Virus record (IMG/VR): IMGVR_UViG_3300045988_143923 | DNA: 64,000 nt | Source of the DNA: a virus | Strand: one strand, 5' to 3' | Shown: one piece after another, positions 3,306-42,432 of the stretch | Layout: every line of letters begins with the position of its first letter | Numbering within the stretch: position 1 is the first letter of the stretch | Notes under the pieces: generated by a model | The model's input: only the letters and a program-made list of their open reading frames with translations | The model's database searches: none | What the model was told of the DNA's origin: nothing | Translations under genes and position numbers: made by a program

Positions 3306-4403
3306 TCAGGCCCAGGAATCAAAGGAGTCTTTGAGATAATAAGAAGATTCATTGCAAACGGCTACAAACTTTCCTGCACCATAAGTAACAGGAACTAATT
3401 TTGTCTGAGCTCCACCTGGATAAGTGCCACTTCTCCAATTAACACCATCTATCGAGTAAGCAAAAAGCCCTTGGGTAAATGACGTTGCTATAAATTTTCC
3501 ATTGCCATAGCAAACAGAACCCCAGCCTGAGGATGTTGGCATCTCAGTCAGAGTCCAGGAGATACCATCCTCAGAATAAGCTGCAGTATTGCTATCTTTC
3601 TCAACAGCTACAAATTTCCCATTACCGTAACAAACAGAGGCCCAGTTTTTATTTTTTGTCAAATGAGCCTCTCTAAAACCGTGTTTGGTACTTTCATTAC
3701 TATAGATAGCACCACATTCAGGTGAACCATCGGCAACAGCTACTAGTGTGCCTTTACCATAAGCAAGTGTCCAATTATCAGCATAGAATAGCAAACCTTC
3801 CGGTTCCCAATTGATACCATCCTCGGAATAAGCTGGATCGCAATCCTCACTTCCACCCTGTCCAATTACTTCGAAACCTTTATCGTAATAGCAAACAGAA
3901 TTCCAGTTTCCCATTATAGGTCCAAGACGAGGAAAAGTCCAATTAATACCATCAAGAGAATAAGCTACTGCACCATTTCTAGCTACAGCTATAAACTTAT
4001 CCGCGCCGTAGCAAACAGAAGTCCAGTTCTCCTTAATTGTAGCATTAGACTTAGACCAATTAATGCCATCAGTAGAATAAACAGGAGTATCAAGACCAAC
4101 AGCAACGAACTTACCCGCTCCATAACAAATAGAAGACCACGATGTATTAACTGGCATTGTTCCGGTAATCCATTCAGGTTTCTCGATGGGAATTAATGTA
4201 CCAGTGACCTTCTCGCCATTGACATAAAGAGTCTTACCGGACAGAATTTTGTCGGCAGTGGCAGTGGCATCGGAGGTATCCACACCAGTCTGGATTGCTA
4301 AAATTCGATTAGCAAAATCCGAAGCCTTGATTGGATCAGTAGATCCGTCCTTATCACGAATGGCATCTGCGATAGATTTAAGATTGGTTTCTTGAATATT
4401 CAA
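3306..4403 (-). CDS. tail fibre / receptor-binding protein with 7-bladed beta-propeller-like repeats
   Basis: 365 aa. Seven repeats of the W-x-S-V-C-Y-G-x-G-K-F-V-A-V ... A-Y-S-x-D-G-I-N-W type (Asp-box-like SxDGxxW). N-terminal module and C-terminal YLKDSFDSWA are shared with the neighbouring paralogue. Confidence 0.8.
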   Translation of the reverse strand: MNIQETNLKSIADAIRDKDGSTDPIKASDFANRILAIQTGVDTSDATATADKILSGKTLYVNGEKVTGTLIPIEKPEWITGTMPVNTSWSSICYGAGKFVAVGLDTPVYSTDGINWSKSNATIKENWTSVCYGADKFIAVARNGAVAYSLDGINWTFPRLGPIMGNWNSVCYYDKGFEVIGQGGSEDCDPAYSEDGINWEPEGLLFYADNWTLAYGKGTLVAVADGSPECGAIYSNESTKHGFREAHLTKNKNWASVCYGNGKFVAVEKDSNTAAYSEDGISWTLTEMPTSSGWGSVCYGNGKFIATSFTQGLFAYSIDGVNWRSGTYPGGAQTKLVPVTYGAGKFVAVCNESSYYLKDSFDSWA

Positions 4404-4420
4404 AATATCATACCTCCTCT

Positions 4421-5515
4421 CTATGCCCAGGAATCAAAGGAATCTTTGAGGTAAGCAGCGACTTTACTCCTGAAAACTATAGCTACAAACTTACCCGTAC
4501 CATAGCAAACATGTGTCGAGGCCGCGCTAGTCGGCAGCGTAGTCTGAATCTGAGTCCAGTTGATACCATCGGTAGAGTAAGCTGCGATATTGTTACTACT
4601 AGACATGGCTACAAACTTGCCATTGCCATAGCATACCCATTGCCAGGCTGCAGAAATCGGCATCGTAGCCTGAGTCCAGTTGATACCATCGGTAGAGTAA
4701 GCTGCAATATTACCGGTCCTAGACACGGCTACAAACTTACCATTGCCATAACAAACCGAGAGCCAGGTTTTATTAGCCGGCAACGTAGTCAGAGTCCAGT
4801 TGATGCCGTCCTTCGAGTAAGCGGCGCGATCATCAGAACCACCAACAGCCACAAACTTACCCGCACCATAGCAAACTGAATACCACCAAACCTCATCCGA
4901 AATCGTAGTCTTAGTCCAGTTAATGCCATCAGTAGAATAAGCAGCGACACCCTCTACACCACTAGCTATCGCTACAAACTTACCTGCACCATAACAAACC
5001 GAGCCCCAGTCGTAACGACTAGCAGGCATTGTAGTCTGAGTCCAGTTGATACCATCGGTAGAGTAAGCAGCGACATTATCACTGTTAGCCACAGCCACAA
5101 ACTTACCCGCACCATAGCAAACCGAGTTTCCGATTCCACTAGCAGGCATTGTAGTCTGAGTCCAGTTGATGCCATCGGTAGAATAAGCAGCGATATTGCT
5201 GCTATAATTCACAGCCACAAACTTACCCGCACCATAGCAAACCGAAAACCAGCTCTCGCTAGCAGGCATGTCGGAACTTTCCCATTTCGGTTTTTCAATA
5301 GGAACTAGAGTACCCGTTACCTTCTGGTTATTCGCATAACCGGTCAGTCCTGAGAGAATGTCTTTGGCTCCTGCAGTGGCATCAGATGTGTCGATGCCGG
5401 TCTCAATGGTGCTGATTTTACTCGCAAATTCCGATGCTTTAATAGTTCCGGTTTCCCCAGTCTTAGCTTTGATGGCGTCGGCGATAGCTTTAAGATTAGT
5501 CTCCTGAACGCTCAT
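4421..5515 (-). CDS. tail fibre / receptor-binding protein paralogue (7 propeller blades)
   Basis: Start refined to MSVQETNL (ATG 5513-5515), which overlaps the upstream TGA as TGATG. Seven very regular 40-aa blades (SVCYGAGKFVAV...AAYSTDGINWTQTTMPAS). Confidence 0.8.
   Translation of the reverse strand: MSVQETNLKAIADAIKAKTGETGTIKASEFASKISTIETGIDTSDATAGAKDILSGLTGYANNQKVTGTLVPIEKPKWESSDMPASESWFSVCYGAGKFVAVNYSSNIAAYSTDGINWTQTTMPASGIGNSVCYGAGKFVAVANSDNVAAYSTDGINWTQTTMPASRYDWGSVCYGAGKFVAIASGVEGVAAYSTDGINWTKTTISDEVWWYSVCYGAGKFVAVGGSDDRAAYSKDGINWTLTTLPANKTWLSVCYGNGKFVAVSRTGNIAAYSTDGINWTQATMPISAAWQWVCYGNGKFVAMSSSNNIAAYSTDGINWTQIQTTLPTSAASTHVCYGTGKFVAIVFRSKVAAYLKDSFDSWA
4450..5260 (-). repeat. tandem ~120-nt coding repeats (propeller blades)
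   Basis: A near-identical DNA string, gtccagttgataccatcggtagagtaagc, recurs at about 4554, 4674, 5040 and 5160, with diverged copies between them. Confidence 0.7.
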
Positions 5516-19865: not shown

Positions 19866-20274
19866 CCATTCTCTTCGTTTTGTTTACAAGGGTTGCAAAG
19901 CCTTATGTTGTATCTACAACCTCATGCTTTCGCATGAGACCCGACTATTTCTTCACCCTTAAAACTAAGGGGCATACCTTTTCCATTTAAGGGATTTTCA
20001 CCCACGCCTTTGCTTGCGCCGTACTCCTGTTGCTCATAAAGAGCCGAGGGATAGTCTGTGAACCTTCTCCGTGTCATGAGACCGATAGGAGCTTGGCTGC
20101 ATGATCACCCATTGTTACTGCACTTAGGCTTTTGACCGTATGCAATCCGCACGTTGTTTCTGCTTTCGCACCGTCATAAACTGCTTTCGCGCTCATTGTG
20201 GTGTGCGGCTTTAGGGGGTACCTGCAATTAAATATGTTGTTATTGCACATTGCTGTACAACCGGGCAAGTGAAT
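19866..20274 (-). ncRNA. group I-type intron 6 (family A)
   Basis: mRNA-sense core CACAGACUA ... GAAGAAAUAGUCGGGUC (19938-19958). P1 is CGGGU|A...UGCCCG with a U.G pair. P9-like hairpin CUCAUGC-GAAA-GCAUGAG. Ends in G. Boundaries are within about 10 nt. Confidence 0.7.
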
Positions 20275-20309
20275 ACCCGAAATCTTTTCGAGCAAAGCTC
20301 AGTATATTC
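20275..20309 (-). CDS. tape measure protein, micro-exon 6 (NILSFARKDFG)
   Basis: A 35-nt segment that keeps the frame between exons 5 and 7 when homologous splice positions are used in introns 5 and 6. An alternative register is possible. Confidence 0.45.
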
Positions 20310-22214: not shown

Positions 22215-22556
22215 CGTACCTTTAGCGCGGGTCGTTACTCCGCACCGACATAAAGTCCTCCGTCTTTCAACGGAGCCGAGATCATATCTTCACCCCATAG
22301 GGTGCCTACCACTTTCAGAGCACTCGCCCCTACTTTGATCGTTGAACCTTCCTCTGTTCGAGGCTTGGCTGCTGATTATCCATTGTCACGGCGTTTAGGG
22401 TTTAACCTTGCGCCATCTCTCATTTTTTTTCTGCTTTCGCCGCATTCACGTTTGCGCCTGTTCGGCACTGCGTTGTAGCATGAGAGCTTTAGGACGTCCC
22501 AGCAATTCAATAGGTGATTTTGCGAACACATTTCTGTGAACGAAGTCCAATGATTA
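22215..22556 (-). ncRNA. group I-type intron 2 (family A)
   Basis: P1 is AAGUU|U...GGACUU. Core CGAUCA ... GAAGAUAUGAUCUCGGCUC (22273-22295). It shares blocks with introns 5 and 6 (ACAGAAAUGUG, GUGACAAUGG, CAGCCAAGC). Confidence 0.7.
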
Positions 22557-22579
22557 AACTTATCGCGTAGTTGTTTCCG
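22557..22579 (-). CDS. tape measure protein, micro-exon 2 (GNNYAIS)
   Basis: A 23-nt segment. Joining it gives ...DRFNEV-GNNYAIS-SEGLGEAL..., which matches the usual TMP core. Confidence 0.6.
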
Positions 22580-31050: not shown

Positions 31051-31126
31051 TGGCACGAGTGCTTCGAGTCGAACGAAGATCGGAGAATTTTGGAGATTCC
31101 CAGTTTCCCAATTAGCCTACACTCGC
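31051..31126 (-). tRNA. tRNA-Trp (anticodon CCA)
   Basis: Manual cloverleaf. Acceptor GCGAGUG/CACUCGU, anticodon stem GGAAU/AUUCU, loop CUCCAAA, T-arm CUUCG-UUCGACU-CGAAG, discriminator G, encoded CCA. Confidence 0.8.
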
Positions 31127-31129
31127 ATG

Positions 31130-31222
31130 TGGCAGAGATGGTTGGATTCGAACCAACGAGCGAGAGCGTTACCTCTCTTGGCGGAGTCAAATTCCGCTGC
31201 CTTACCGCTTGGCCACACCTCT
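31130..31222 (-). tRNA. class II-shaped tRNA with apparent UUG anticodon (isotype ambiguous)
   Basis: Manual fold. Acceptor AGAGGUG/CAUCUCU, 3-bp D stem GCC/GGC, anticodon stem GCGGA/UCCGC with loop AUUUGAC, a roughly 23-nt variable arm (GAGAG-GUAACG-CUCUC), T-arm GUUGG-UUCGAAU-CCAAC, discriminator G73, encoded CCA. Confidence 0.65.
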
Positions 31223-40467: not shown

Positions 40468-41004
40468 TTAAAATTCCACGGTCGAAACGCACCGTGGCGC
40501 GTATTTGAATTCATCCGTTGACCGTCGGCGCAGGTCGCGCTCCAGTTCGGATGCAATGTAATTGGCATAAGCCAGACTCGAGTAACGGTCTTTACGCATA
40601 CCGGATACTTCGTACACCCTGATGTTCTGACCGGCCATCTCGTATTCGAGGTTGATCGTCTCGTTTACAAAGGCGGTAGTCTGGTAGTACGGGTGCTGGT
40701 ATGCAACCTGTTCCTCAACGGAGAGTTTGCGGTAAGCCTTGCTCTTTTCGAGCAGCTCAACGCCGTCAATTTCGTTGATAAGCAGGCGCAGTTTGCCTCG
40801 TTTGATACAGTCTCGAAGGGAAACTGCCATCTCGGAGTTCTTCGAAGCAGATGCTTTGATGCTGTATATAACTCTCGGAGCATTCGGATTGCGACTTCGT
40901 GCCGCCATATTTTCGTCATTGATGCACGACCATGCTTTATACTCAACTCCTCGGGTCTCGTCGTAAAGGTCTTGAACGAGTTGATCATAGATTGATATTC
41001 CGAC
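40468..41004 (-). CDS. terL: terminase large subunit, C-terminal nuclease part (3' exon)
   Basis: VGISIYDQLVQDL...MRKDRYSSLAYANY continues the RNase H-like nuclease domain. The track ORF begins inside the intervening sequence. Confidence 0.7.
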   Translation of the reverse strand, partial: VGISIYDQLVQDLYDETRGVEYKAWSCINDENMAARSRNPNAPRVIYSIKASASKNSEMAVSLRDCIKRGKLRLLINEIDGVELLEKSKAYRKLSVEEQVAYQHPYYQTTAFVNETINLEYEMAGQNIRVYEVSGMRKDRYSSLAYANYIASELERDLRRRSTDEFKYAPRCVSTVEF

Positions 41005-41256
41005 CTCACCTTTTCTTTCTGGTTTTTTATCCAGAAACTTACGGTTTATTTCCCGTAAGATGAGCATATCTTTTCATCTACGTGAGATGGCGCGGACTCG
41101 TGCGAGGATTATAGTTCGCCAAATTGGCGAGATCACCTCGTATGCGTTGCCTGTGACTTCGTCTTTACTCGAAGCCTTCCAGTCGGATTCCCGTCTCAGG
41201 GTTCCCGTTTTCTTCCGCGCTACACTCCAACTGTCGCCAGAAGGAGGGGCGTCGCC
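41005..41256 (-). other. 252-nt intervening sequence in terL (candidate intron) containing an in-frame TGA
   Basis: It sits between ...DYVVVDTNG and VGISIYD. Its translation is Arg-rich and not protein-like, and it contains TGA at 41074-41076. Strong helices are present (GCGCGGA/UCCGCGC, UCGCCAA/UUGGCGA, GGCUUCG/CGAAGUC, CUUACGG/CCGUAAG). Boundaries are approximate. Confidence 0.5.
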
Positions 41257-42432
41257 ACCATTGGTATCAACTACGACATAATCCACATCCAAATCATCAT
41301 AAAGCTGACGGATACGGATCGCTTGGTCTTGACCATGACCACCATCAATGGTCTCCATGTAACATTCATTGCGGATATACTGTCCGGAGTTGTTAGGCAG
41401 GAGCTGCAACAGAGTGATCGCTGTTGCGTCGTTCTTCGCGCCGCCGGAGGTTGCGATATCGCAGCTCAGCAGGCGAATTTCTCCGGGTTCCTTTGTTGGG
41501 TACTTCAGCTTGGGATCGCCGAGTGCCGCATACATAGGCCGCGGATAGACTGGGCGCGTGATGCGCCGGACAGAGTTTAGGTCTGTAAAAGAGAAGAATG
41601 CACGTTCGGACTCGCCATAAAATTCTGAGCACATTTCCATGCTCCAGCTTATCTCGTTGAAATCATCTTCCTGCATCTCTTCTCGAATCTGTTCCATCGG
41701 GTAATATCCCGCAGAAACAGGAAGTTGATAAGGGAATCCGCACACGATATACGGTTCGCTCTTGATCATCGACTTAAAATAAGCCTTAAATTTCGCCCAG
41801 CTGTAATGCCATTTGAAGTATGCCGAGCTGATATAGGTCTCCGTGTTACGTTCCTTTGGATAGTTCTTGTATTTCGGGAAACTGTAAAAGCCCGGGGTAC
41901 GCTCGCCAGCTTTGAACTTTCTGAGCACCTTATCAATAATATCCTTCGGAATCTGCACGAATTCGTCCGCAATCATCCAGTTTGTACGCGCAGAACGTGA
42001 AGAATCACGCGCTGTTACAACTTTGACCACGGAGCCATTTTTGAATTTGATATACGCCTCGCTAGGCGTCACTTTGTAATCTTCAATCTCGTTCGTTAGA
42101 TTGGGCGAGTCAGGCATGAACTTTTCGACTATCTTGTTCAATAGGTTCGTTGACTGACTTCGGACGCCGGCTGCGACAGTGACTTCCAAACCGGGATACA
42201 AAATACACCGAACACAAATGGCCGCCGCCACGATCATGGACTTACCCATGCCGCGAGAAGCGATAATCATCACATAGGTGTTCAGACAGATTAAGTCCAG
42301 CAGGATGCACTGGAACATCGCCAGCCATTTCATGCCGAGATAATCCTGAGCAAAACGATGTGGATTAGCTCGATAGAAACTAACCCACTTGCACATACCT
42401 CGTTCAATTTTTTCAGCTTTGGTGGCATCCAT
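41257..42432 (-). CDS. terL: terminase large subunit, ATPase and N-terminal nuclease part (5' exon)
   Basis: Walker A ASRGMGKS, Walker B WMIADEF, nuclease motif LLSCDIATSGGAKNDATAI. Confidence 0.8.

Follow-up and report, generated by a model that had tools for sequence, protein, structure and literature searches.

Lactobacillus phage LL-H reportedly carries a group I intron in terL, the terminase large subunit gene. Within the Bastillevirinae, 5 of 52 terL genes are split by group I introns, which mostly resemble the IA2 and IA3 models, often carry an HNH endonuclease, and were found using Rfam and GISSD models (PMC11878797). Group I introns in phage terL are already established, and what is new here is a further example in an SPbeta-like phage, from a lineage that Rfam does not detect. 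We describe an insert of 252 nucleotides (nt) at positions 41005..41256 in the terL gene of IMG/VR virus record IMGVR_UViG_3300045988_143923, of which a stretch of 64,000 nt was analyzed (the window). Judging from its sequence and from its relatives, the insert is very probably an IA-type group I intron without an open reading frame (ORF) of its own, and the terL pre-mRNA would be spliced.

The likeness to LL-H and to the Bastillevirinae Bacillus phages consists of an IA-type group I intron in terL and of HNH genes in the loops of relatives. In contrast to the Bastillevirinae, the phage described here has a TerL protein of the YonF type known from SPbeta (46% identical), and the intron family is invisible to the Rfam group I model RF00028. 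The T4 td and nrdB introns (IA2) are like the terL insert in being built as group I introns, in having an additional pairing that separates P7 from P3' (P, paired segment; J, joining segment), and in residing in a phage; by annotation, they also carry an endonuclease gene in a peripheral loop, as do relatives of the window copy. However, they have no detectable sequence or profile similarity to it, and P7.2 is nested in P7.1 here but lies side by side with it in T4.

The terL locus and the boundaries of the insert

The initial annotation described two terminase ORFs in the same frame, and the ORF list confirms them. On the minus strand, a single TGA at 41074-41076 parts 41074..42432 (452 amino acids [aa]) from 40468..41067 (199 aa). 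We divide the locus as follows:

41257..42432, minus strand: terL exon 1, coding for the ATPase domain and the first part of the nuclease domain; ends GAU ACC AAU GGU (DTNG)
41005..41256, minus strand: predicted ORF-less group I intron, 252 nt; G1 at 41256, terminal G at 41005
40468..41004, minus strand: terL exon 2, the rest of the nuclease domain, stop codon included; starts GUC GGA AUA (VGI)

Matches of the 452-aa ORF include Pfam Terminase_6N and several terminase families of PHROG. One of these profiles runs across both ORFs: positions 20-178 of PHROG 26582 (363 positions) align to residues 229-390 of the first ORF, and positions 180-346 align to residues 21-184 of the second. Terminase homology thus ends at ...VVVDTNG (residue 390 of the first ORF) and restarts at VGISIYD (residue 21 of the second), with exactly 84 codons, or 252 nt, in between. 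A search with the joined TerL protein found 1253 relatives, and the uninterrupted ones are 569-572 aa long and 73-81% identical across their full length. The joined product of 570 aa is collinear with homologs of 570-571 aa, to which it is 81% identical.

Ten intact TerL homologs (57-81% identical) were aligned, the comparison that the initial annotation had proposed, and the insert is absent from all of them. None has a residue between NG and VG, D-x-x-G runs straight into (V/I/S)-G in every case, and D389 and G392, just ahead of the insert, are invariant. Terminases of the SPbeta YonF type likewise align in one piece without the insert, at 46% identity. The PHROG profile and the ten homologs together bear out the 84 codons at 41005..41256 as the insert, and the conserved protein insert that would speak against an intron is not present in these homologs.

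As the initial annotation had noted, a U (41257) precedes the insert and a G (41005) ends it. Because the intron and exon 2 both begin with G, moving both boundaries by one base yields the same mRNA; the U at position -1 favors the boundaries given above over the shifted ones. The predicted junction in the spliced RNA is GAUACCAAUGGU joined to GUCGGAAUAUCA, also given as GTTGATACCAATGGT joined to GTCGGAATATCAATC, with DTNG-VGISIYD as the junction peptide. A 286-nt stretch comprising the insert and 15-19 nt of each exon (40990..41275) folds to -94 kcal/mol, compared with -75 +/- 5 kcal/mol for its shuffles, and the native sequence is better than all 200 of them (z = -3.9).

Homologous inserts in unrelated phage genes

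A blastn search with the 2.1-kb terL region against 50,697 phage records produced a sole match, which falls inside the insert and shows 72.7% identity over 127 nt, in Yersinia phage phiR1-37 (NC_016163, ~243616-244905). The phiR1-37 copy is flanked by two coding sequence (CDS) pieces, both named DNA topoisomerase II, and closely follows a gene named endonuclease. Reading of its flanks places the exon ends at ...TTIG and RYHPHGD...; the insertion precedes the latter, which we take to be the gyrase A/topoisomerase motif. Its core is homologous to that of the window copy (164 bits with R1, a covariance model of the family core), with the same helices and compensatory changes. In phiR1-37, the endonuclease gene occupies the P1 loop, not P8, and the 3' domain folds differently from that of the window copy, with extra hairpins. 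The record has no intron feature there, and the literature titles and abstracts matching phiR1-37 and intron included none about this one.

The family extends well beyond this pair. Near-identical copies, which we refer to as window-type, occur in five viral contigs (L003, L008, L010, L012, and L016). The same terL codon carries the RNA in IMG/VR contigs L002, L009, L013, L046, L058, L076, and L081, and it is also interrupted in the genome contig L221, from a Gastranaerophilales metagenome-assembled genome. Other members lie in the gyrA gene of Bacillus phage vB_BpuM-BpSp, in the tape-measure genes of Clostridium phage phiCD211 and Staphylococcus phage 6ec, in terL of Staphylococcus phage SpP, and in the major tail protein gene of Staphylococcus phage F1. 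The host genes in BpSp (gyrA) and phiR1-37 (topoisomerase II/gyrase A) thus differ from terL. Enterocloster phages and Clostridium perfringens phages contain further members, crAss-like phages gave partial matches, and 106 phage records matched one blastn query.

In six relatives at the terL site (L013, L002, L009, L076, L081, and L046), the P8 strands flank an ORF of 282-302 aa, and the one in L013 matches Pfam HNH and DUF7487. The window intron contains no homing endonuclease ORF, and its P8 loop is 5 nt long. Since relatives at the same site carry ORFs in P8, we assign the window copy, itself devoid of an ORF, to a mobile family; further copies devoid of an ORF measure 261, 263, and 268 nt. 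The leading idea of the initial annotation was an intron, with group I as the precedent but no canonical fold that could be fitted by hand, and these HNH-bearing relatives at the same codon support that idea, as does covariation among 18 copies, described below.

Four relatives show further peculiarities. Contig L064 (IMGVR_UViG_3300014826_000001) holds an ORF-less copy at ~2050-2330, with exon ends ...KQFCTIGG and VGMYEV..., in a gene that may be nrdD-like (anaerobic ribonucleotide reductase), as read by eye. This copy has the same P1 loop as the terL copy L046, and the loop mismatches the 3' exon beside it, a hint that the intron moved between genes recently. The phiCD211 tape-measure gene (L232, NC_029048) apparently contains two introns, at ~1793-2075 and ~2098-2363, around a micro-exon of ~22 nt; the second is annotated as Intron_gpI, and the first, which belongs to the terL intron family, was left unannotated by the depositors. 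In Staphylococcus phage SpP (L230, PP468606), terL is annotated as several "terminase large subunit" pieces. R1 matches this gene twice, at 1911-2080 (106 bits) and at 3391-3563 (65 bits), which makes two interruptions by introns of the family probable. Enterocloster phage CB457P2 (L227, OP172754) has a family member at 2457-2713, between two "hypothetical protein" pieces, and an Rfam group I intron (95.9 bits) ~750 nt downstream at 3459-3789, beside an I-TevI-like endonuclease gene.

Short-pattern scans also returned candidates that we rejected. Matches of the 15-mer CACAGGCAACGCATA in genome contigs are overwhelmingly due to chance. A longer gapped pattern gave seven genome-contig matches, of which only L221 and L222 are real; the others reported from that scan (L219, L220, and L223-L226) are coincidences in coding sequence. 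A 17-mer scan of viral contigs returned seven unrelated coding matches (L004-L007, L011, L015, and L017).

A group I fold supported by covariation

The core alignment, A3, was built with MAFFT from 18 copies and tested against 500 shuffles and against controls in which the pairing partners were slid. Across the copies, 92.4% of cells pair, compared with 68.8% in the shuffles and 32-42% with slid partners. Changes on both sides occur at 36 of 43 pairs, and on four of five measures none of the 500 shuffles reaches the observed value. Most pairs covary in every helix except P7, and a model-based alignment made with R1 gives similar covariation. The core is complete in the order P3-P4-P5-P6-P7-P3'-P8-P7', with P3 and P7 crossing, as expected of group I. 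P2 and P9 look poorly paired in the alignment because MAFFT misaligned both; their hairpins appear when each copy is folded separately.

The individual elements are listed below in 5'-to-3' order. Intron positions are counted from G1 (41256), so that the window coordinate equals 41257 minus the position. The junction of the window copy was set by the protein alignment, and those of the other copies were set by reading their exon frames.

41248..41259, minus strand: P1, exon GGU plus G1 (41259..41256) paired with CGCC (41251..41248); loop GCGA
41251..41254 with 41001..41004, minus strand: P10, CGAC with GUCG, the first exon-2 bases; a complementarity of 4 bp beside P1
41225..41246, minus strand: P2 hairpin, CUCC..CUG-GCGA-CAG..GGAG with a GNRA loop, from separate folding of copies
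41215..41220, minus strand: P3 5' strand, GCGCGG (37-42), pairing with 41090..41095
41184..41207, minus strand: P4 (CGGG/UCCG) and P5 (CCC/GGG); both strands of the internal loop between them, J4/5 and J5/4, are AA
41151..41182, minus strand: P6 (CUG/CAG) and P6a (GGCUUCG/CGAAGUC), 10 of 10 pairs changed on both sides
41141..41147, minus strand: P7 5' strand, A-C(bulge)-GCAUA (110-116), pairing with UAUGCU at 41063..41068 (189-194)
41103..41140, minus strand: P7.1 (CGAGG/CCUCG) enclosing P7.2, or P7.1a (UCGCC/GGCGA), 10 of 10 pairs changed on both sides
41090..41095, minus strand: P3 3' strand, CCGCGC (162-167), partner of GCGCGG
41075..41089, minus strand: P8 hairpin, CAUCU-CACGU-AGAUG, 4 of 5 pairs covarying
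41063..41074, minus strand: J8/7 (AAAAGA), then P7 3' strand (UAUGCU), nearly invariant in the family
41016..41059, minus strand: P9 (CUUACGG/CCGUAAG) and P9.1 (UUUCUGG/CCAGAAA); the P9.1 loop is the conserved 8-nt AUAAAAAA
41005..41015, minus strand: 3' tail, GAAAAGGUGAG, 11 nt with a terminal G

A group I fit could be achieved because P7 was placed at ACGCAUA/UAUGCU and CGAGG...CCUCG was read as an insertion of the P7.1 type. An earlier placement of P7 as GAGU/GCUC was dropped, as phiR1-37 breaks it; GCAUA/UAUGC with a bulged C was adopted because it fits all copies. P7 crosses P3 as a pseudoknot, its bulged nucleotide adjoins a G-C pair, and it is presumably the guanosine-binding helix. It is invariant in most copies, and the exceptions are compensatory: GCGUA/UACGC in L227 and GCUUA/UAAGC in L230, in which one inner A-U pair is replaced by G-C (Enterocloster phage) and by U-A (Staphylococcus phage SpP), respectively. 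L227 also shows a joint change of the closing pair and the bulge, from A-U with a bulged C to G-C with a bulged A. Among the remaining core helices, P3 has changes on both sides at 5 of 6 pairs in A3 and at 6 of 6 in alignment A4, and P4/P5 has them at 6 of 7 pairs, with 94% of cells pairing.

The P7.1 hairpin follows the P7 5' strand and precedes the P3 3' strand, an IA-type feature. The UGA and AUAUAA motifs that flank it are conserved, and the BpSp copy has one further hairpin in this region. The in-frame TGA of the terL locus (41074-41076) corresponds to the end of the P8 stem and the first base of J8/7, and the ATG that opens the second ORF (41067) falls within the P7 3' strand. The J8/7 region resembles the Rfam group I consensus AAGAUAUAGUC, which is found in the two other introns of the window.

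Peripheral elements recur as well. Hairpins at P2 occur in 13 of 13 copies with differing stems, the loop being GNRA in all but phiR1-37. Those at P9 and P9.1 occur in 12 of 13, again with differing stems, and the loop AUAAAAA(A/G) is found in 13 of 13. A terminal G ends each of the 13 copies with defined junctions. It is tentatively suggested that GUG (248-250) and CAU (41060..41062; 195-197) may pair as P9.0; window-type copies are invariant there.

In P1, U41257 lies opposite a G, which puts a U.G wobble at the 5' splice site. In the alignment, P1 has its full set of four pairs in 12 of 13 copies, the fourth varying among G-C, A-U, and C-G; the pairing exists in phiR1-37 also, where MAFFT misaligned it. 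Once ligated, the exons (GGU joined to GUCG) would pair with the guide sequence as one uninterrupted helix of 7 bp. Across copies this guide tracks the exon sequence (GAAUUUGU/ACAAAUUC, AAACUUGU/ACAAGUUU, AGAAAU/AUUUCU, and AGUUGCAC/GUGCAACU), and P10 complements of 6-8 bp change with the exon in L002, L009, L081, L221, L046, L058, L227, and L232. Little P10 complementarity is present in L076 and L064.

Much of the RNA structure seen in the initial annotation withstands this comparison. Its helices GCGCGG/CCGCGC (P3), GGCUUCG/CGAAGUC (P6a), UCGCC/GGCGA (P7.2), and CUUACGG/CCGUAAG (P9) are real and covary in relatives, and the element that it likened to the J8/7 motif, AAAAGAUAUGCU, is J8/7 plus the P7 3' strand. 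Its possible pseudoknot GAGGUG/CAUCUC is abandoned: it is complete only in near-identical copies, with 3-5 of 6 pairs elsewhere, and its two strands belong to P7.1 and P8, both of which covary.

Searches with Rfam and family models

The initial annotation had proposed a search of Rfam ribozyme and intron models, and for the insert the outcome is negative. Rfam cmscan of 2.1 kb and of 301 nt at E <= 10 gave no RF00028 match to the insert, which returned only chance-level matches to miRNA, snoRNA, PreQ1, and pntA models. All ten family members tested are missed by RF00028, namely the window copy, phiR1-37, and eight others, among them the phiCD211 member. The same model scores T4 td at 40.3 bits and nrdB at 35.7 bits, below its 50-bit gathering score. 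Since all ten tested members and both T4 introns fall short of the threshold, the silence of RF00028 weighs little, and the miss is a limit of the model rather than of the defining biology. A profile hidden Markov model (HMM) of the family matches 41004..41264 with an E value of 5e-65, and the only R1 match within the window is 41062..41223 (165 bits).

RF00028 does find two group I introns elsewhere in the window, at 19921-20284 and 22258-22566 on the minus strand (61.2 and 69.2 bits), which an earlier note places in the tape-measure gene region. They share the genome, the strand, the structural-gene region, and a J8/7-like AAGAUAU motif with the terL intron. In contrast to the latter, which has no RF00028 match, they score 61-69 bits, and they belong to a different lineage because the family HMM and R1 both miss them.

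The window copy and its sister allele in L013

Contig L013 (IMGVR_UViG_3300045988_113551, ~3648-4850) represents the same phage type and carries a 288-aa HNH/DUF7487 ORF in P8. The 5' 172 nt of its intron are 96.5% identical to those of the window copy, and exon 1 is 95.7% identical; the intron 3' domain (J7/9, P9, P9.1, and the tail) is 66% identical and exon 2 about 76-82%. This drop in identity at the endonuclease site indicates that the two alleles are mosaic there, and it suggests a recombination or co-conversion boundary. A C-to-U difference from L013 at position 86 leaves a G.U pair.

Window-type copies vary at five positions among themselves (35, 132, 133, 177, and 234), all in loops or junctions, namely J2/3 and the loops of P7.2, P8, and P9.1, which we read as a sign of selection. 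The truncated terL ORF belongs to a cluster of 213 member sequences, which, together with the several contigs, implies that intron-carrying phages are common.

Alternative explanations

Several observations weigh against a group I intron that splices in the window. The insert does not reach the 50-bit gathering score of RF00028. R1 does not match T4 td or nrdB at E <= 1, so the family is not tied here to any intron with demonstrated splicing. At 7 nt, J3/4 is longer than usual, and P10 has only 4 bp in the window and is not significant alone (shuffle fraction, 0.30). The 3' domain departs from that of L013, and the window copy is without the family's usual GAAC ... G(A/G)UAAC..UUG, having its own J7/9 and tail, which makes the docking of the 3' splice site less certain. 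One alternative is a decayed intron that no longer splices and leaves terL either as a pseudogene or as two polypeptides, an ATPase of ~452 aa and a nuclease restarted at the ATG at 41067; the divergence of the 3' domain from the family consensus and the lack of a homing endonuclease gene agree with decay, and the second ORF does open with that ATG. However, the core helices are intact, J4/5, J6/7, J8/7, the P7 bulge, and the terminal G are all present, the differences among window-type copies are confined to loops and junctions, and the intron allele is abundant. The ATG is part of the P7 3' strand and precedes by 63 nt the point where homology restarts, and a two-piece protein would have its nuclease domain cut right after the invariant D389..G392 motif. 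We therefore consider decay improbable, and the window copy probably still splices. A structured RNA of another class, some other ribozyme or a novel intron type with only a superficial likeness to group I, would account for the lack of any Rfam match and for the failure of R1 on the T4 introns, but it is very unlikely given the full set of group I features, most of them covarying: the U.G pair in P1, a guide complementary to both exons, the P3/P7 pseudoknot, the P7 bulge beside a G-C pair, A-rich J4/5 and J8/7, the terminal G, and a peripheral loop that in relatives houses endonuclease genes.

Explanations at the level of translation fare worse still. The initial annotation had named UGA read-through and a genuinely disrupted gene as alternatives, and neither gains support. 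Read-through, for example by the phage tRNA-Trp, would yield a TerL of 654 aa with an 84-residue insertion; the insert is indeed in frame, a multiple of three with a single stop, and a tRNA-Trp(CCA) gene is present at 31051-31126. Yet an in-frame length has a one-in-three chance, the other ORF-less copies have the lengths given above, the insert peptide matches no Pfam family, and none of the ten homologs has residues there. The same nucleotide sequence also occurs in unrelated genes, whose reading frames cannot yield this peptide, and its conservation tracks base pairing rather than codons, all of which renders read-through exceedingly unlikely. We assign an equally slight chance to ribosome bypass of the kind in T4 gene 60, with peptidyl-tRNA-Gly moving from GGU at 41257-41259 to GGU at 41008-41010. 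Although these codons match, lie in frame 249 nt apart, and have exon flanks that can pair, there is no stop codon after the take-off codon, and the product would gain a Glu (DTNG-E-VG; expected junction peptide, DTNGEVGISIYD) that is found in none of the ten homologs. The T4 gene 60 bypass spans ~50 nt, and the gap here is several times longer than known bypasses and lacks their signals; a group I fold and mobile relatives explain the element fully. An intein was rejected, as the 84 codons contain a TGA, match no Pfam family, start with Gly, and end with Gly-Glu before Val; an intein would be free of stops, begin with Cys, Ser, or Thr, and finish in His-Asn ahead of Cys, Ser, or Thr.

Predicted splicing pathway

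With the group I intron as the preferred explanation, the following course is predicted from the fold. The gene terL would be transcribed as a single pre-mRNA in which the intron folds into a group I core. An external guanosine held in P7 would attack the bond after U41257, at the U.G wobble of P1, and the freed end of exon 1 would then attack the bond after the terminal G41005, with the P10 guide holding exon 2. Joining of GAU ACC AAU GGU to GUC GGA AUA would give the terminase of 570 aa, and the TGA and the Arg-rich "codons" would be intron RNA that is never translated. The element belongs to a mobile intron family in which the HNH enzyme of relatives would spread the intron into conserved phage genes that still lack it, and the window copy has either lost its endonuclease gene or never had one.

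Elsewhere in the window, a 93-nt tRNA lies at 31130-31222 on the minus strand, beside the tRNA-Trp gene. ARAGORN calls it Gln(UUG), although its extra arm of ~21 nt is unusual for a glutamine tRNA; the Rfam tRNA model scores it at 53 bits.

Implications for phage intron biology and annotation

If the insert is spliced as proposed, terL is intact in this phage and should be annotated as one spliced gene of 570 aa rather than as two ORFs or a pseudogene, and no recoding of a stop codon needs to be invoked for it. The window copy and L013 form a natural pair for the gain and loss of a homing endonuclease.

It is conceivable, although we would hold it only tentatively and think it rather less probable than its contrary, that the family constitutes an uncatalogued, distinct subgroup of IA-like group I introns that has spread through phage genes, with or without HNH endonucleases, which occupy different loops. 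The marks of such a subgroup may be a nested P7.1/P7.1a with UGA and AUAUAA strands, an AUAAAAAR loop in P9.1, and a P7 of ACGCAUA/UAUGCU. Its host genes may include terL, tape-measure, tail, capsid, gyrase, and possibly nrdD genes, and its carriers may include Firmicutes phages, a Yersinia jumbo phage, and crAss-like phages, with many of the genes annotated as fragments.

An entire family of phage introns goes undetected by the Rfam group I model, and split structural and replication genes are consequently left as "hypothetical protein" fragments in phages of Staphylococcus, Clostridium, Bacillus, and Enterocloster and in metagenomic phages. A covariance model of the family, such as R1, would repair those annotations.

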